A stretch of 26,823 bases of DNA. Origin: a virus. Both the position numbers and the translations under genes were made by a program. The stretch is from UHGV virus genome UHGV-0250493. One strand, given 5' to 3'. The notes under the pieces were generated by a model. The model worked only from the letters and a program-made list of their open reading frames with translations. It had not been told where the DNA came from and did no database searches. Positions 2,968-10,720 of the stretch are shown here, piece after piece (the stretch's first letter is position 1; each line of letters opens with the position of its first letter).

Positions 2968-3088
2968 TGACTGAAATCGCGTCAGTACAGTAAACGCGCT
3001 GGTGGCGGTGAATACCTGTCTTTCAGCTTGCTGGCTTTTTCGACAAGAGTTATTGGTGTGTCACGTTAACCGGAAAAGGGAAAAAGAC

Positions 3089-4535: not shown

Positions 4536-4611
4536 GGCCCTTTAGCTCAGTGGTGAGAGCGAGCGACTCATAATCGCCAGGTCGCTGGTTCAAATCCAGC
4601 AAGGGCCACCA
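4536..4611 (+). tRNA. ileZ: tRNA-Ile2 (anticodon CAU, lysidine type; may be annotated as tRNA-Met)
   Basis: Cloverleaf folded by eye: acceptor GGCCCTT/AAGGGCC, D-arm GCTC...GAGC, anticodon CAT at 4569-4571, T-loop TTCAAAT, encoded CCA. Near-identical to E. coli ileX. Confidence 0.85.
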
Positions 4612-4618
4612 TCACATA

Positions 4619-4695
4619 CCGCCATTAGCTCATCGGGATAGAGCGCCAGCCTTCGAAGCTGGCTGCGCGGGGTTCAAGTCCCCGATGGCGGTCCA
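4619..4695 (+). tRNA. argN: tRNA-Arg (anticodon UCG)
   Basis: Acceptor CCGCCAT/ATGGCGG, anticodon stem CCAGC/GCTGG, loop CTTCGAA (anticodon TCG at 4653-4655), T-arm CGGGG-TTCAAGT-CCCCG, encoded CCA. Confidence 0.8.
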
Positions 4696-4708
4696 TTATC
4701 TGCATCAT

Positions 4709-4752
4709 GCGTTGTTAGCTCAGCCGGACAGAGCAATTGCCTTCTAAGCAGC
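4709..4752 (+). tRNA. tRNA-Arg (UCU)-like 5' fragment, apparently truncated (argO-like)
   Basis: Canonical acceptor 5' strand GCGTTGT, D-arm, and anticodon arm with loop CTTCTAA (anticodon TCT at 4743-4745). No T-arm or complementary acceptor 3' strand (ACAACGC) found by eye in the following 100 nt. Confidence 0.4.
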
Positions 4753-5120
4753 TGTGGTTGCACTCCTGTTGTTTCTGGTGGTGATGGTGGACTTCAGCAG
4801 CCGGATAATGTCGGTGCTGTCTGATGGTGTTTTGGTGGCGGGTGTGTGGTTGTTGCTTTCCCGTTGCTGAAAAAGAAAGCATCAGGCGATTAGCAGGGTA
4901 TCAGTTACCCGTTGAAATTTTTAAATACCTCACAATTCCACAGCTTGATGATTGTCTGGCTGCCGGAGAATTTGTTAAAAATTACATCGCATGGTGAATC
5001 CCCCTGTGCGGAGGGGCAATCAGCGAGTAGGTATATGGGATAATCGCGGATTCAGGTGCTGGTACTGAATTCACCGGGAGGCACCCGGCACCATGCAATG
5101 GCACATAGCGCCACTCTCCA

Positions 5121-5155
5121 GCCCCTCTCCGGAGGGGCTGTTTATATTGATTTTG
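5121..5155 (+). terminator. intrinsic terminator in the toxin-slot region
   Basis: Perfect 7 bp stem GCCCCTC-TCCG-GAGGGGC followed by the T-rich tract TGTTTATATTGATTTTG. Confidence 0.5.
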
Positions 5156-5510: not shown

Positions 5511-5770
5511 TTAGTTTCCTTGTTTATGCCTTGCTGGTGATGTTCTGAAAAGTATAAATGATATTTTTGATTGTAAACCATAGAGCAGAATTATTTTTCT
5601 GATGTTGTTTATTGTTTATTTAAATGCAGGGTGGTTTATATCTCGTCTTGTAGTTTATCCATGCATATCTGCTTGATGATGAGGTTTTTATTTAAGGTAT
5701 GGTTTTGTTTTTTTTCTGTATTACATGTCAGGTATTTTAAAGAATCATTTTTCAGATGGTGGAAAGAACC

Positions 5771-7627
5771 ATGGCATTTAAACACTATGATGTTGTCAGG
5801 GCGGCGTCGCCGTCAGATCTTGCGGAAAAGCTGACACATAAACTGAAAGAGGGCTGGCAGCCGTTTGGTAGTCCGGTGGCCATAACCCCTTATACCCTGA
5901 TGCAGGCGATTGCAGCAGAAGGTGATGTGGTCGTCAGTGGTGCAACTGAGCCGGAGTGGTACTACGTCATCGTACTGGCCGGGCAGTCCAATGCCATGGC
6001 TTACGGTGAAGGGCTTCCGCTTCCGGATTCATACGATGCGCCCCATCCGCGCATTAAGCAACTGGCCCGTCGTAACACAGTGACTCCCGGTGGCGAAGTA
6101 TGCGTATTTAACGACATCATTCCTGCTGACCATTGTCTGCATGATGTTCAGGATATGAGTACGATTAACCATCCCCGGGCTGACCTGAGCAAAGGGCAGT
6201 ACGGTTGTGTCGGACAGGGCTTACATATTGCCAAAAAACTGCTTCCGTATATCCCTAATAATGCGGGGATCCTGCTGGTACCATGCTGTCGTGGTGGTTC
6301 GGCATTCACCAAGGGCACGGAGGGGACATTCAGCGAGTCCACGGGGGCCAGTCAGGATTCGGCTCGCTGGGGAGTGGGTAAGCCGTTATATCAGGATCTG
6401 CTTTTCCGCACGAAGGCAGCATTGCAGAAAAACCCGAAAAACGTTTTGCTGGCGATATGCTGGATGCAGGGGGAATTTGACATGAGCGCTGCCACCTACG
6501 CACAGCAACCGGACCTGTTCACGGCCATGCTGAAGCAGTTCCGTACTGACCTTTCCGGATTTAACGCGCAGTGCCATGGCGGCAGTGCTGCAGTTGTACC
6601 GTGGATTTGTGGCGACACGACGTATTACTGGAAAAACACATACGGCACACAGTATGACTCCGTCTACGGCGCGTACAAAAACAGGGAGAGCGACAACGTT
6701 TTCTTTGTGCCGTTCATGACCGACGGTAACGGCAACAACACGCCCACCAACTTACCGGCAGAAGACCCGGATATTGCTGATGCAGGTTATTACGGCGCGC
6801 AATCCCGTAGTAATGGTAATTGGGTATCGTCAAATCGTCCGACACATTTCAGTTCATGGGCGCGCAGGGGCATTATTTCGGATCGCCTGGCAACCGCTAT
6901 TCTGAACGCAGTTGGTCGAACCAGCGCCTTCATCAGCGGTACCGCACCGGAGATTAAACCCTCGCCCGGCGGCGACACGCCATCGGGGCCGTCTGATGGT
7001 GACACATCCGTTCGTACAGTCTCCCTGCTGCCGACAGCCGGAGAGGCTGCTGCGCAGGGCTGGACCATCACCGGCGGCAGTGTTGCGCTGGAAGATGGTG
7101 TGTTTAAGGTTACCAAGCAGAGCAATAAAACCTGGTCCCTGATGCATCCGGTGGATGACGCAGTCTCCCTGCTGACACGGGGTGGCAGACTGAGCTGTAA
7201 GTTTCGACTGTCAGGCGCACTGACCAACAACCAGTTCGGTCTGGGAATTTATCTGTATACCGATGTAGCGTTACCTGACGTCGTGGCGATGACCGGGACT
7301 GGTAACCCGTTCCTGATGTCGTTCTTCACCCAGACCACAGACGGCAAACTGAATCTGATGCATCACAAGAAAGCCGGAAACACAAAGTTGGGCGAGTTCG
7401 GGAATTACAGTAACGACTGGCAGACGCTGGAGCTGGTGTTCACCGCCGGCAGTGCCACGGTTACTCCGAAACTGAATGGAGTGGCTGGCCCGGCATTCCA
7501 GGTCATAAAAGACAGTCTGACACTGGGGCTGAATGCGCTGACGCTGACGGATATTACCAAAAATGCAGCGTATGGCGTTGAGATAGAAAGTCTGGTGCTG
7601 GAGATAAATGCACCGGCATCATCATAA
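5771..7627 (+). CDS. nanS-p: prophage 9-O-acetyl sialic acid esterase (NanS-p type: DUF1737 N-terminus plus SGNH esterase plus C-terminal domain)
   Basis: N-terminal MAFKHYDVV...EGWQPFGSP (DUF1737-like), then the SGNH-type motif VIVLAGQSNAMAYG. Position matches the large ORF downstream of the toxin slot in Stx-type prophages. Start taken at ATG 5771 (GGAAAG RBS) rather than track start 5756. Confidence 0.8.
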   Translation: MAFKHYDVVRAASPSDLAEKLTHKLKEGWQPFGSPVAITPYTLMQAIAAEGDVVVSGATEPEWYYVIVLAGQSNAMAYGEGLPLPDSYDAPHPRIKQLARRNTVTPGGEVCVFNDIIPADHCLHDVQDMSTINHPRADLSKGQYGCVGQGLHIAKKLLPYIPNNAGILLVPCCRGGSAFTKGTEGTFSESTGASQDSARWGVGKPLYQDLLFRTKAALQKNPKNVLLAICWMQGEFDMSAATYAQQPDLFTAMLKQFRTDLSGFNAQCHGGSAAVVPWICGDTTYYWKNTYGTQYDSVYGAYKNRESDNVFFVPFMTDGNGNNTPTNLPAEDPDIADAGYYGAQSRSNGNWVSSNRPTHFSSWARRGIISDRLATAILNAVGRTSAFISGTAPEIKPSPGGDTPSGPSDGDTSVRTVSLLPTAGEAAAQGWTITGGSVALEDGVFKVTKQSNKTWSLMHPVDDAVSLLTRGGRLSCKFRLSGALTNNQFGLGIYLYTDVALPDVVAMTGTGNPFLMSFFTQTTDGKLNLMHHKKAGNTKLGEFGNYSNDWQTLELVFTAGSATVTPKLNGVAGPAFQVIKDSLTLGLNALTLTDITKNAAYGVEIESLVLEINAPASS

Positions 7628-7777: not shown

Positions 7778-7993
7778 ATGTACCAGATGGAAAAAATCAC
7801 AACAGGTGTGTCATACACCACGTCAGCGGTGGGAACGGGCTACTGGTTCCTGCAGTTGCTGGACAGGGTTTCCCCGTCTCAGTGGGCGGCAATAGGCGTG
7901 CTGGGGAGTCTGCTGTTTGGGCTGCTGACATATCTGACTAACCTGTATTTCAAAATCAGAGAGGACCGTCGTAAGGCGGCACGGGGAGAGTAA
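7778..7993 (+). CDS. S: class II holin (S21-like pinholin)
   Basis: 71 aa, [71 protein letters not shown], near-identical in pattern to phage 21 S. Dual-start motif (Met1 and Met4). GGGAG RBS. Confidence 0.85.
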
Positions 7994-7997
7994 TTCA

Positions 7998-8348
7998 ATG
8001 ACTCAAAACTATGAACTGATTGTGAAAGGGATCCGCAATTTTGAGAATAAAGTTACGGTAACTTTAGCGTTACGGGACAAAAAACGCTTTGACGGTGAAA
8101 TTTTTGACCTGGACATCTCGCTGGACCGTGTTGAAGGTGCCACGCTGGAGTTTTATGAGGCAGCAGCCAGAAGGAGCATCAGACAGGTCTTCCTGGATGT
8201 TGCTGCCGGGTTATGTGAAGGGGATGAGCAGTCGCCGGAAAAGCGCCCCGTAATTTTAGAGGCGCAGAATGTATGGATAACCTACAAAGGAAAGCTACCG
8301 GGAATAATTACTGGTTCTCTGAAGACTCCTCCGGAATCACAACCTTAA
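7998..8348 (+). CDS. YdfR-like protein (DUF1327-type) inside the lysis cassette
   Basis: 116 aa ORF with GGGAGAG RBS, between holin and endolysin as ydfR is in the Qin prophage. Function unknown. Confidence 0.6.
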   Translation: MTQNYELIVKGIRNFENKVTVTLALRDKKRFDGEIFDLDISLDRVEGATLEFYEAAARRSIRQVFLDVAAGLCEGDEQSPEKRPVILEAQNVWITYKGKLPGIITGSLKTPPESQP

Positions 8349-8411: not shown

Positions 8412-8945
8412 ATGAACACCAAAATCAAATACGGCTTGTCGGCTGCCGTTCTGGCGCTGATTGCCGCTGGTGCGCCTGCGCCTGACATTCTCGACCAGTT
8501 TCTGGATGAAAAGGAAGGTAACCACACCACGGCATACCGTGATGGCGCGGGTATCTGGACCATCTGCCGCGGTGCCATCCTGGTGGATGGCAAACCTGTC
8601 GTTCCGGGCATGAAGTTGTCGAAGGAAAAATGCGACCGGGTTAACGCCATTGAGCGTGATAAGGCGCTGGCATGGGTGGAGAAAAACATCAGAGTGCCAT
8701 TGAGTGAACCCCAGAAAGCGGGGATCGCGTCATTCTGTCCGTACAACATTGGCCCCGGTAAGTGTTTTCCGTCGACGTTTTATAAACGAATTAATGCAGG
8801 TGATCGCAGGGGAGCGTGTGAGGCGATTCGCTGGTGGATTAAGGACGGTGGCAGGGACTGCCGTATTCGCTCAAATAACTGTTACGGTCAGGTATCCCGT
8901 CGTGACCAGGAGAGCGCGCTGGCGTGCTGGGGAATCGACAGATAA
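8412..8945 (+). CDS. R: SAR endolysin (GH24 lysozyme with N-terminal signal-anchor-release domain)
   Basis: 177 aa. N-terminal weakly hydrophobic Gly/Ala-rich segment LSAAVLALIAAGAPAP. Lysozyme catalytic region E...D...T (DEKEGNHTTAYRDGAGIWTICRG). Paired with a pinholin as in phage 21. Confidence 0.85.
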   Translation: MNTKIKYGLSAAVLALIAAGAPAPDILDQFLDEKEGNHTTAYRDGAGIWTICRGAILVDGKPVVPGMKLSKEKCDRVNAIERDKALAWVEKNIRVPLSEPQKAGIASFCPYNIGPGKCFPSTFYKRINAGDRRGACEAIRWWIKDGGRDCRIRSNNCYGQVSRRDQESALACWGIDR

Positions 8946-9039
8946 GCAGAATATTTTGCTAATAAATGACGTTGGCCAAGGCGGACGGATAACACGAAAT
9001 CCTGCGAACTGGCAAAATGTAAGTGAATAAAAGTAAAAA

Positions 9040-9074
9040 CCCCGTTTGTTGGCAGCAAGCGGGGTTTTGTTTTT
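9040..9074 (+). terminator. intrinsic terminator immediately after the endolysin gene
   Basis: 9 bp stem CCCCGTTTG-TTGGCAG-CAAGCGGGG followed by TTTTGTTTTT. Confidence 0.5.
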
Positions 9075-9139
9075 ATGGCAGTAAGCTATGGGAGGCTGCC
9101 TTGATTGATTTTAGCAAACTGATTAGGGAGTTGCGACTC

Positions 9140-9235
9140 ATGATTAGTCAATTACCAAACTGGAAATTTTTGCTGGTCTGGAGCATCCCTTTTTTATGGG
9201 TAGTATCCCAGTTAATTGTGGCAATTAAGGGGTAG
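9140..9235 (+). CDS. small membrane peptide A, 31 aa
   Basis: ATG 9140 with AGGGAG 9 nt upstream. MISQLPNWKFLLVWSIPFLWVVSQLIVAIKG, one predicted TM helix. Below ORF-track cutoff (it is the 3' part of track ORF 9023..9235). Confidence 0.45.
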   Translation: MISQLPNWKFLLVWSIPFLWVVSQLIVAIKG

Positions 9236-9237
9236 CT

Positions 9238-9369
9238 ATGTCAGACAAACTCATAACGCCGGCAAAGGTCCTGTGTGTGATTGTCGGTATTTCATTTTCA
9301 CTAATGCTGGTTGCTCTTTTTCTGTCCCTCGCCTGGGTGATGTTGTCTTCGTCGGGGCTGCTGGGGTGA
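9238..9369 (+). CDS. small membrane peptide B, 43 aa
   Basis: ATG 9238 with AAGGGG 6 nt upstream, 2 nt after the peptide A stop. MSDKLITPAKVLCVIVGISFSLMLVALFLSLAWVMLSSSGLLG, one TM helix. Confidence 0.45.
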   Translation: MSDKLITPAKVLCVIVGISFSLMLVALFLSLAWVMLSSSGLLG

Positions 9370-9488
9370 CAGTGACTGATGACATCAGCAGAGCGCTGGC
9401 TTTTGCTATTAAGTGGGTGGCTGTTGGTATTGCTGTGTCTCCGATGCTGTATGGGCTGGCAAAACTGGTCATTGCGCTGAAATCGTGA
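9366..9488 (+). CDS. small membrane peptide C, about 38-40 aa, paralogue of D
   Basis: GTG start at 9366 overlapping the B stop (GGGGTGA), or at 9372. ...DDISRALAFAIKWVAVGIAVSPMLYGLAKLVIALKS. Similar to peptide D at protein and DNA level. Confidence 0.4.
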   Translation: MTVTDDISRALAFAIKWVAVGIAVSPMLYGLAKLVIALKS

Positions 9489-9499
9489 ACTTTAAAAAG

Positions 9500-9586
9500 A
9501 TGAGTGCTGAACTTATTCGGGCAATGGCATTTGCCATTCGTATTGTGGCCATTGCTGTTCTGGTCTGGGCAATCCGTTGGTGGTGA
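9500..9586 (+). CDS. small membrane peptide D, 28 aa
   Basis: ATG 9500. [28 protein letters not shown]. Stop TGA lies 1 nt before the Rz start. Confidence 0.4.
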
Positions 9587-9587
9587 T

Positions 9588-10055
9588 ATGAACCGTGTTC
9601 TGTGTGTGGTGATTATTGTCCTGCTGGTAGCCTGTGGTGTGCTTAGTCTGGGGCTGAATCATTACCGCGATAACGCCATCACCTACAAAGCGCAGCGCGA
9701 TAAAAAAGTCAGTGAGCTGAAACTGGCGAACGCGACAATTACTGATATGCAGATACGCCAGCGTGATGTCGCTGAACTTGATGCCAGATACTCGAGGGAA
9801 TTAGCCGATGCGAGAGCTGAAAATGAAACTCTGCGTGCTGATGTTGCCGCTGGTCGTAAGCGCCTGCGGATCAACGCCACCTGCTCCGGTACCGTGCGTG
9901 AAGCCACCGGCACCTCCGGCGTGGATAATGCAACCGGCCCCCGACTGGCAGACACCGCTGAACGGGATTATTTCATCCTCAGAGAACGGTTGATGACAAT
10001 GCAGAAGCAGCTGGAAGGGGCACAGGACTATATCCGCACTCAGTGCCTGAACTAA
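9588..10055 (+). CDS. Rz: Rz i-spanin
   Basis: ATG 9588 with GGTGG upstream. N-terminal TM helix ([16 protein letters not shown]) followed by a long charged coiled-coil-like region. Contains the embedded Rz1 frame. Confidence 0.8.
9823..9993 (+). CDS. Rz1: Rz1 o-spanin (lipoprotein, embedded in the +1 frame of Rz)
   Basis: [15 protein letters not shown] lipobox followed by a proline-rich tail, wholly inside Rz. An alternative start at 9808 is possible. Confidence 0.75.
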
Positions 10056-10372: not shown

Positions 10373-10393
10373 TTATCTGTGCGGGGAATGAAA

Positions 10394-10720
10394 ATGAAAA
10401 GAAATCTTCCGTTAATTATTTTGTTGTCTTCTCTGGTTATGGGCTGTACGCAACATAAAACAGATATGCCCCGACAGTTGGTTAAGGCATTACCACAATA
10501 TCCGGCCTATGCAGCGGCAAATTATATAAAGGGACGGGTTGATGTGAGGTTTGATATTGGTGCTGATGGTACTGTCACCCGAATTGAGTTTATTCGTTCA
10601 GAGCCGCACCATCTGTTTGATGAGCAGGTTGTAAAGGCGATGGCAAAATGGCGATTTGAGAAGGACAGGCCGTGTAAAGGCGTGAAGAAAACGTTTATCT
10701 TTAGTCCTTCTGCACACTGA
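10394..10720 (+). CDS. lipoprotein with TonB C-terminal domain
   Basis: Signal peptide with lipobox (LVMGC). The mature part PQYPAYAAANYIKGRVDVRFDIGADGTVTRIEFIRSEPHHLFDEQVVKAMAKWRF aligns closely with E. coli TonB residues about 160-230 (PQYPARAQALRIEGQVKVKFDV...REVKNAMRRWRYEPG). Confidence 0.75.
   Translation: MKRNLPLIILLSSLVMGCTQHKTDMPRQLVKALPQYPAYAAANYIKGRVDVRFDIGADGTVTRIEFIRSEPHHLFDEQVVKAMAKWRFEKDRPCKGVKKTFIFSPSAH

Follow-up and report, generated by a model that had tools for sequence, protein, structure and literature searches.

A terminator-led array of tiny membrane-peptide genes at the endolysin–Rz junction of an Escherichia coli lambdoid prophage

Introduction

The four genes of the lambdoid lysis cassette, which encode holin, endolysin, Rz and Rz1, are taken to form a solved unit. 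The timing of lysis decides burst size and, in phages that carry Shiga toxin (Stx) genes, toxin release too. Here we describe a 642-bp insert in UHGV virus genome UHGV-0250493, a stretch of 26,823 nucleotides (hereafter the window) that is the late region of an Escherichia coli lambdoid prophage. The insert lies between the stop codon of the lysozyme (endolysin) gene R, at 8945, and the ATG of Rz, at 9588; a gap of about 640 bp had been reported in a preliminary description made from the sequence alone. It carries four tiny genes, A, B, C′ and D, each for a predicted membrane peptide.

Accessory small membrane proteins of lysis cassettes are already known, and the array is best filed among them; what distinguishes it is that it is mobile, reshuffling, led by a terminator and promiscuous across cassette types. 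Its nearest functional precedents appear to be antiholins and timing modulators (such as ORF52 of phage BSPM4), Mu releasin, HokW of Stx phage Sp5 and gp15 of HK97. Antiholins and other holin regulators (lambda S107, phage 21 S71, P1 LydB, T4 RI, and BSPM4 ORF52; PMC11657625) are likewise small membrane proteins encoded in or beside the lysis cassette. Lysis itself does not depend on these late products, which adjust its timing; we propose the same properties for the present peptides. In contrast to antiholins, the peptides are encoded by separate genes 3′ of the endolysin gene rather than from alternative holin starts, and they have no sequence relation to such regulators in Pfam, NCBIfam or PHROG. 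Moreover, B accompanies both P21-S-type and holin_8/holin_3_7-type holins, which argues against one specific holin partner.

Mu gp25 releasin is, as predicted for each peptide, an inner-membrane product with a single transmembrane (TM) domain, and is encoded a few genes downstream of an endolysin of the signal-anchor-release (SAR) type; from the inner membrane it acts on lysis. It has 99 amino acids, N-out/C-in topology and a 73-residue acidic cytoplasmic domain, and belongs to DUF2730 (PMC9239132). The peptides and their longer relatives, in contrast, have only 28–60 residues and a C-terminal TM helix followed by at most a few residues, and A and B also occur with non-SAR endolysins. With neither a DUF2730 match nor a cytoplasmic domain, they are not relatives of releasin, although a releasin-like role had been suggested for them.

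Two further systems share the small size and membrane location. HK97 gp15, a YebO-like moron product, is an inner-membrane protein from an extra late-operon gene that is variably present in relatives; its gene is expressed from the prophage and has both a promoter and a terminator of its own (PMC3594210). HokW is a prophage membrane peptide that is made upon induction and promotes lysis and release; it appears ahead of R and is kept under antisense-RNA control (PMC8621323).

Tentatively, and at a little under even confidence, we favor the reading that the four peptides are late-expressed accessory lysis-cassette microproteins that would act in the inner membrane. Full-text literature searches on lysis cassettes, spanins, SAR endolysins, pinholins and small prophage proteins found nothing on these peptides, and the literature searched gave no earlier description of such families organized behind the endolysin gene as a shuffled array with a terminator at its head.

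Results

The insert encodes four peptide families under purifying selection

Four contiguous + strand open reading frames (ORFs), oriented with the late operon, follow a hairpin in the insert (Table 1). Each contains one hydrophobic stretch (Kyte-Doolittle 19-residue mean 1.9–2.9), in agreement with the single membrane helix previously proposed for each. None of 2000 dinucleotide-preserving shuffles of the region yielded four non-overlapping hydrophobic ORFs, two being the maximum seen.

We estimated selection from the ratio of nonsynonymous to synonymous differences (pN/pS), using Nei-Gojobori counts on distinct nucleotide variants. In-frame ratios were 0.09–0.14 for C, 0.26 for D and 0.14–0.44 for B, compared with 0.10 for R, 0.41 for Rz and 0.6–19 for the two shifted frames. 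For A, comparison with homologues in L179 (another enterobacterial genome) and L180 (Providencia) gave 0.19–0.23 at a pS of about 0.5. By these measures all four ORFs are genuine coding genes on which purifying selection acts. Together with the fixed length of B, the in-frame ratios also speak for a gene cluster, as preferred in the preliminary description, over debris of one longer known gene, with C′ and D being shortened family members.

The ORF count given earlier stands, as do the lengths of B, C and D; A has 44 codons rather than 31. The shorter form corresponds to an internal ATG at 9140, preceded by AGGGAG (−8.4 kcal/mol). The 13 codons upstream of this ATG (IDFSKLIRELRL) are conserved at the protein level in L179 and L180 with synonymous differences (CTG/CTA, AGG/CGG, ATT/ATA and CTC/CTT), and the L179 copy has an ATG precisely at the position of the window's TTG 9101; A thus most likely starts at this TTG. 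The TTG follows a strong Shine-Dalgarno (SD) sequence (GGGAGG, 9090–9095; −10.2 kcal/mol against the anti-SD), and B also has one (AAGGGG, 9227–9232; −8.4 kcal/mol), as had been noted for both genes. The predicted layout of A is a basic amphipathic N-terminus and one TM helix. The gene occurs in 892 of 5426 complete E. coli genomes, mostly without annotation. A 70-codon ORF that PGAP calls in some genomes (9023–9235) was rejected: it runs through the hairpin of the terminator, and relatives have the N-terminal part either interrupted or unconserved.

B has invariant residues K4, G17 and F20 and a conserved GISFS motif, and keeps a length of 43–44 codons across variants down to about 62% identity. 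AlphaFold2, run with the family alignment, predicts a single helix (residues 3–41) at a confidence (pLDDT) of 85. B-like DNA is found in 1702 of the 5426 genomes, at 4602 places and at up to 11 per genome. A − strand ORF at 9251–9472 showed neither hydrophobic character nor other support.

C and D belong together at the family level. In most prophages C is a gene of 48–60 codons with its own SD (MxKYKRILLRLT-MKNGLELKAPVTDDISRA-AFAIKW...ALKS) that matches phrog_1115 at E = 3.7e-42; AlphaFold2 with the family alignment predicts a long helix at residues 25–59 that a loop joins to a short helix at the N-terminus (pLDDT about 90). The window copy, by sequence comparison, is a 5′-truncated version of this gene: the 3′ end of B is fused to mid-C (GGGGTGA followed directly by CAGTGACTGATGAC) both here and in the C-B-C′-D array of L066, so that C′ retains the helix only and would start, if it starts at all, at the GTG that overlaps the B stop. 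The B-C′-D block recurs in L066, and L086 has full-length C-D. PGAP gives C′ 51 codons, from CTG 9333 (WP_042004856.1). D is the short form of a C paralogue of 37–50 codons such as that in L006 (VRKYKRFFLRLSIMKGIEVETPASLDLTRAAAFAIRIV...IRWW); it matches phrog_4493 at E = 3.8e-6, and the long form at 3.3e-24. Members of the C/D family diverge down to about 40% identity, yet keep one layout: the N-terminus is basic, the linker is acidic, and after a TM helix comes either of two ends (...ALK[S] or ...IRWW). C and D cross-match PHROG 1115 and 4493 and share a core motif, R-A-x-AFAI-[KR], in which AFAI is invariant, and natural hybrids exist in both directions (P0116 joins a C-type N-terminus to a D-type end; P0236 is the reverse). 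The paralogy and the duplication of the unit that had been proposed are borne out by these features and by array comparison; the claimed likeness at the DNA level is modest and confined to short seeds.

A hydrophobic ORF in the +1 frame of C′ (9379–9480, 33 codons, ATG start) was discarded, with pN/pS of 0.6–0.9 in that frame and about 0.1 in that of C. It is open in relatives, and rare natural frameshift hybrids (P0070 and P0104) end in it.

The C-terminus of D is IRWW, and its final codons (TGGTGGTGA) double as an SD-like sequence for Rz. D-type and A2-type genes, the latter from an unrelated family, both end in (A/Q)IRWW-stop (window 9572–9590; L008; L178 480–740). In L178, a metagenomic contig, the two copies have an identical 21-nt 3′ end (GCCGCCATCCGCTGGTGGTAG) and just one of them abuts a downstream gene. 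The common end could signal ribosome binding or coupling, form a C-terminus with a function or act as a linker in recombination. More generally, any peptide gene that directly precedes Rz ends in G-rich, SD-like codons (GGTGGTGA or GGGGTGA).

This last regularity would also be expected if the ORFs were largely neutral by-products of recombination that persist by carrying ribosomes across the terminator and spacer to Rz, the peptides having scarcely any function and C′ and D being relics. Consistent with such an origin, C′ and D are 5′-truncated, lack an SD (that of C′ is weak, at −5.0 kcal/mol) and arose by joining at short homologies, and occasional nonsense or frameshift variants are seen (L003 A; P0191, P0198, P0070 and P0104). 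These variants form rare clusters, as expected from mutational noise. We consider this explanation improbable: purifying selection acts at the amino-acid level in all four families, including on TM cores far from the Rz start; motifs are conserved (the AFAI core; K4, G17 and F20 of B); and the families persist where no Rz follows.

All four peptides match PHROG families that lack functional annotation (E = 1.8e-13 to 3.8e-6 for window forms, and down to 3.7e-42 for full-length forms). For six peptide forms, no Pfam family, DUF2730 included, scored above threshold; searches of Pfam and NCBIfam gave no match to holin or antiholin families, and no PHROG match was in the 'lysis' category. PADLOC-DB returned no family for the six forms at E ≤ 1, and PDB sequence searches gave no informative match. 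The genes had been presumed unannotated, which is true of A in most genomes; B, C and D are listed by RefSeq/PGAP as 'hypothetical protein'. The peptide strings were not found in the supplements of an O157:H7 Sakai RIBOseq study. The small proteins YnfQ, YnfR, YnfS and YnfU known from K-12 ribosome profiling were rejected as counterparts, being encoded elsewhere in Qin, and the K-12 R–Rz junction is without peptides.

A conserved hairpin heads a recently spread block

The intrinsic terminator previously placed at 9040–9074 corresponds to a 15-pair hairpin at 9036–9068 in our consensus scan, followed by GTTTTTAT; the segment folds more stably than its shuffles (z = −4.9). Alignment of the versions from E. 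coli, Salmonella and Providencia shows that compensatory changes maintain the stem (one pair appears as U-G, U-A, A-U and G-C, another changes from C-G to A-U), and at the equivalent position Stx phage P27 carries another hairpin. Because of this covariation and replacement in kind, the hairpin reads as a selected feature and not a chance one.

Wherever the slot is filled, a terminator hairpin of varying sequence and conserved structure stands directly after the endolysin gene, in the middle of the late operon (window 8946–9078; L170 2810–2960; L180 405–545; L176 895–1050). It may serve as an insulator in the lysogen, as a stabilizer of an mRNA 3′ end or as a recombination boundary. The spacer between the lysozyme stop and the hairpin holds a conserved GGATAACAC(G/A)AAATCC core, common with Salmonella; a 24-codon ORF in the spacer shows no protein-level conservation in relatives.

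Downstream of the hairpin the genes are chained closely. Two nucleotides separate the A stop from the B ATG, B and C′ overlap in GTGA, 11 nt separate the C′ stop from the D ATG, and D stops 1 nt before the ATG of Rz. The stop-start overlap (GGGGTGA) and the 1-nt junction with Rz had both been described correctly.

Sequence variation places a boundary at the head of this block. In three E. coli copies that are 97.8–98.6% identical to the window over the 642-nt insert, the 90-nt spacer holds 9 of 9, 11 of 16 and 12 of 12 differences, that is, a divergence of 10–13%, and the adjacent 486-nt peptide block has 0–2 changes, all synonymous. Since nearly all differences fall in the spacer, the array has the behavior of a block that spread recently and whose recombination boundary is close to the terminator. 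Many complete E. coli genomes contain the entire insert at 100% identity, and the full A-B-C′-D array (at least 80% of the insert) is found in 587. The array is also present in Escherichia phage records, including PhiR5 and PhiR12 (recorded host E. coli K-12 or C), and carriers of B-type genes include Stx-converting phages and reference strains of extraintestinal and enteropathogenic E. coli (EC958 and E2348/69-like O127:H6).

Overall, the families (PHROG 6632, 4906, 1115 and 4493) are essentially confined to Escherichia and Salmonella, with rare occurrences in Providencia. A was found in E. coli, Salmonella and one Providencia contig, and all named matches to B were from E. coli. C and D range over Escherichia and Salmonella, with 27 representatives at E ≤ 1e-3 among 1.84 billion cluster representatives.

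A promoter-like site lies on the − strand at 9244–9215 (CTGACA, an 18-nt spacer and CACAAT, with an upstream TG), in antisense orientation to the junction of A and B. On the − strand, too, the hairpin folds with a U tract, and the two elements might yield an antisense RNA that covers A over about 180 nt. Such an RNA would fit a type I toxin-antitoxin pair in which A or B is a membrane-depolarizing toxin; the peptides are suitably small and hydrophobic, and HokW, which aids the release of Sp5 (PMC8621323), offers a precedent. We regard this as very improbable. Promoter-like sites are within chance expectation (2 found versus 3.4 expected); this one is missing from the homologous A-B junction of L179 and from C-B arrays (L004); and the putative antisense RNA has unremarkable structure (z = −1.6). 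Rfam had no family in the insert at the gathering threshold, only sub-threshold, terminator-driven matches at E ≤ 10 (ohsC reached 21.6 bits against a cut-off of 50); neither a conserved antisense RNA nor a match to a known antitoxin RNA family was found. Unlike HokW, the peptides have no conserved antisense promoter and no Hok-family similarity, and their genes are part of an operon rather than a stand-alone toxin locus.

The array is reshuffled behind several unrelated endolysins

The post-endolysin slot is empty in many relatives. K-12 Qin and DLP12 have overlapping genes for lysozyme and Rz, and among 68 loci recovered with a lysozyme query from other Enterobacterales species, the next large ORF overlaps or abuts the lysozyme gene in about 43. 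None of these 68 loci outside Escherichia contained the peptides. Other related prophages have reshuffled content, so that both outcomes considered in the preliminary description, an empty junction and a different insert, are found.

Among 170 viral and genomic loci, the order A-B-C′-D was seen in 81 (partial contigs included) and R-C-B-Rz in 79 (including truncated and duplicated variants of the order); C-B-C′-D, A-B, A2 alone, C-D, E-C-F-D and D alone account for a few each. In Stx-converting phages the order is R, hairpin, ant, B, Rz, in which ant is an antirepressor gene. A dedicated pairing between the TM domains of the last peptide and Rz was considered and rejected, as B, D and A2 can each precede one and the same Rz N-terminus.

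Single close queries recovered near-identical copies only, and a divergent B variant was needed as the first query to reach other contexts. All 80 loci found with the divergent B profile lie in a lysis-cassette context: 61 have an upstream holin or endolysin gene and a terminal Rz or lipoprotein gene, and 19 are cut by a contig end or represent partial cassettes. About 36 are of the phiP27 type, with two holin genes and then an M15 or GH108-like endolysin gene, and the remainder are of the phage-21 type. The phiP27-type cassette, known from phiP27, Rac-SA53 and SerU-LTIIb-type E. coli phages, is unrelated to the window genes: its holins are holin_8 and holin_3_7, and as endolysin it has an M15 L-alanyl-D-glutamate peptidase in some cases and, in others, a lysozyme that we called GH108-like by eye from sequence. 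In these roughly 36 loci the endolysin gene is followed by a hairpin, then C-B, A-B, E-C-B or F-C-B, and then a small lipoprotein gene, with no Rz. A-B, in L179, follows an M15 peptidase endolysin without signal or N-terminal hydrophobic segment, and C-B follows the endolysin classed by eye as GH108-like, with holins of other families. Elsewhere, A is situated between a CHAP-like hydrolase gene and an Rz-like gene in Providencia (L180), and C between a different SAR lysozyme gene and Rz in Salmonella. By this distribution, the peptides move as a module that is headed by a terminator and settles behind endolysin genes from at least four classes.

Several of these loci have features of their own. 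The predicted lipoprotein after the phiP27-type array has 60–65 residues and a lipobox (LVGC; phrog_7528), and its start overlaps the end of B (L288/L289 2125–2322; L341 1851–2039; L179 1762–1887); it may be the outer-membrane component of this cassette. In phiP27 itself the slot is filled by a 90-codon ORF on the opposite strand (L341 1510–1782, −) and holds no peptides. In Salmonella L170, a 29-codon hydrophobic ORF (MICFVAAFMLACDGRSGWGWFLLVGLIVM; 2726–2815) overlaps the endolysin stop (ATGA), and an 8-codon mini-ORF precedes the C gene (2978–3003), a mini-ORF layout that recurs in E. coli L006.

The association with lysis genes is strong and not absolute, because C-type relatives also occur downstream of tail-fiber genes and, in one metagenomic contig, a portal-like gene is preceded by a D-type gene, then a terminator, then an A2-type gene. 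Such contexts would suit moron-like cargo unrelated to lysis (for example a block to the entry of DNA from superinfecting phages at the inner membrane, or a counter to a membrane-based defense of the host), for which the junction is a permissive late-operon slot; HK97 gp15 is a precedent for a small inner-membrane exclusion protein (PMC3594210). Several further observations fit this alternative. The insert is extra DNA lacking in close relatives, as in the definition of a moron (PMC3594210), its presence is polymorphic, and its base composition is unlike that of its flanks: the G+C content is 46% for the A–D block and 38.5% for A alone, compared with 54–55% outside (55% for R, 54% for Rz). The units are shuffled combinatorially and occur in multiple copies per genome, as the places of B illustrate, and the slot houses an antirepressor gene in Stx phages. 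A relative in L178, assigned to the A2 type, matches phrog_35629 ('moron... membrane protein') at E = 5e-8, a match of that relative and not of window A or E. coli A2.

We nevertheless judge this alternative unlikely, though of some weight. The classical moron layout (PMC3594210) of an own promoter and a downstream terminator was not found by consensus scan in the window, L004 or L179, and the sole terminator is upstream; expression in the lysogen is doubtful for both reasons. There is no match to a PADLOC defense family, and the great majority of sampled occurrences are inside lysis cassettes of several unrelated types. The peptides also differ from gp15 in having no detected promoter, a terminator upstream and no sequence similarity to it.

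Proposed late expression and role in lysis

Returning to accessory lysis microproteins, we propose the following. The insert would be a horizontally mobile module, made up of a spacer, a terminator hairpin, an SD leader and a variable array of tiny genes, that plugs in right behind the endolysin gene of temperate enterobacterial phages. Each gene of the array would give rise to a single-pass inner-membrane peptide. In lambdoid phages, RNA polymerase modified by Q reads through terminators. The peptides may be made only from the Q-antiterminated late transcript, alongside the lysis proteins, given the lack of a detectable promoter, the upstream terminator and the stop-to-start chaining of the genes down to Rz. 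Translation of Rz would be coupled to the array, the last peptide bringing ribosomes to the Rz start. A simple consensus scan, which weak promoters could escape, found no + strand promoter-like site in the three arrays examined (window, L004 and L179).

At the cytoplasmic membrane, the peptides may tune the timing or efficiency of lysis as dispensable accessory microproteins. A lysis-related role, as raised in the preliminary description, is plausible in light of the recurrence of the same families downstream of endolysins in several unrelated cassettes. The rationale given for it there, control of a pinholin and a SAR endolysin, is not supported, because other holins and non-SAR endolysins are also accompanied. 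Since the holins that accompany A and B are unrelated and the endolysins include SAR as well as signal-less types, a generic target (membrane energization or integrity, lipid packing, or a host membrane component or factor) is likelier than an antiholin- or releasin-like action on the S21 pinholin or the SAR domain. A narrower proposal, to which we give distinctly less credence than to late-expressed accessory microproteins as such, is that the peptides are a new class of portable, interchangeable lysis modulators that function behind any endolysin, irrespective of holin and endolysin class, and set timing or robustness through the energized inner membrane or a host membrane factor. The other role suggested earlier, as toxins for exclusion or abortive infection, found no positive support: PADLOC gave no match, and the genes have a terminator upstream and no detected promoter of their own.

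Several points weigh against a role in lysis. The peptides are dispensable, since many functional cassettes lack them, and hypervariability and reshuffling of the kind seen here typify accessory or conflict genes more than they do lysis machinery. C-, D- and A2-type genes also occur near tail-fiber and portal-like genes. C′ and D, which lack an SD in the window, may be translated poorly, and the absence of a promoter rests on a simple consensus scan. Finally, literature searches yielded no report of expression, localization or phenotype for the four families. The probability left over by this reading and its alternatives belongs to something else.

The surrounding late region

The identities and order of the holin, lysozyme and Rz/Rz1 genes (Table 1) make the description of the cassette as a pinholin/SAR-endolysin type sound; the paradigm is summarized in PMC6139136. 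PGAP names the holin 'class II holin family protein'. The N-terminus of the lysozyme is Ala/Gly-rich and weakly hydrophobic (Kyte-Doolittle mean 1.74 at residues 9–27), and its translation shows the motif E-8aa-D-5aa-T (aa, amino acids).

The DUF1327/YdfR-family gene between holin and lysozyme is absent from phage 21 and DLP12, and RefSeq also lists a 90-residue hypothetical protein nearly wholly within it on the − strand (8034–8306). The late region resembles a Stx-phage layout without stx (4536–5149, 5756–7627 and 10379–10720). The SASA-family esterase gene upstream of the holin is accompanied by DUF1737/DUF6645, and downstream of Rz is a gene for a small protein that has a TonB_C domain and whose N-terminus is signal- or lipoprotein-like.

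Table 1. Features of the insert and its neighborhood, in window coordinates
Feature	Position	Strand	Remarks
Two tRNAs and STnc100 small RNA, then SASA-family esterase	5′ of holin		STnc100, 133.7 bits
Class II holin, phage 21 S family	7778..7993	+	dual-start motif MYQM; Pfam PF04971 'Bacteriophage P21 holin S', E = 9e-33
DUF1327/YdfR-family gene	7998..8348	+	between holin and lysozyme
GH24 phage lysozyme, SAR-type	8412..8945	+	Pfam PF00959; RefSeq rrrQ/lysozyme
Non-coding spacer	8946..9035	+	3′ of lysozyme stop; variable among otherwise identical arrays
Intrinsic-terminator-like hairpin and T tract	9036..9078 (stem 9036–9068)	+	5′ boundary of mobile module
Peptide A, 44 amino acids	9101..9235	+	TTG start; PHROG 6632 (E = 1.8e-13)
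Peptide B, 43 amino acids	9238..9369	+	one predicted TM helix; PHROG 4906 (E = 4.5e-21); RefSeq WP_001280935.1
Peptide C′, 40 amino acids	9366..9488	+	GTG overlapping B TGA (GGGGTGA); PHROG 1115; predicted TM helix only
Peptide D, 28 amino acids	9500..9586	+	ATG; SD absent (+0.3 kcal/mol); PHROG 4493/3246; RefSeq WP_032140280.1
Rz i-spanin	9588..10055	+	Pfam PF03245
Rz1 o-spanin, embedded in Rz	9808..9993	+	Pfam PF06085

Discussion

If the peptides are portable modulators, phages would diversify the array by shuffling, duplicating and truncating its units, and the post-endolysin slot would be a tunable lysis locus in Stx phages and in about one third of E. coli genomes. As lysis modulators they would constitute a missing regulatory layer between endolysin and spanin, and one that is easily testable. 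Should they instead be exclusion or anti-defense peptides, the same slot would represent a new hotspot of phage conflict genes. Either way, four conserved families are added to the poorly charted membrane microproteome of bacteria and their phages.

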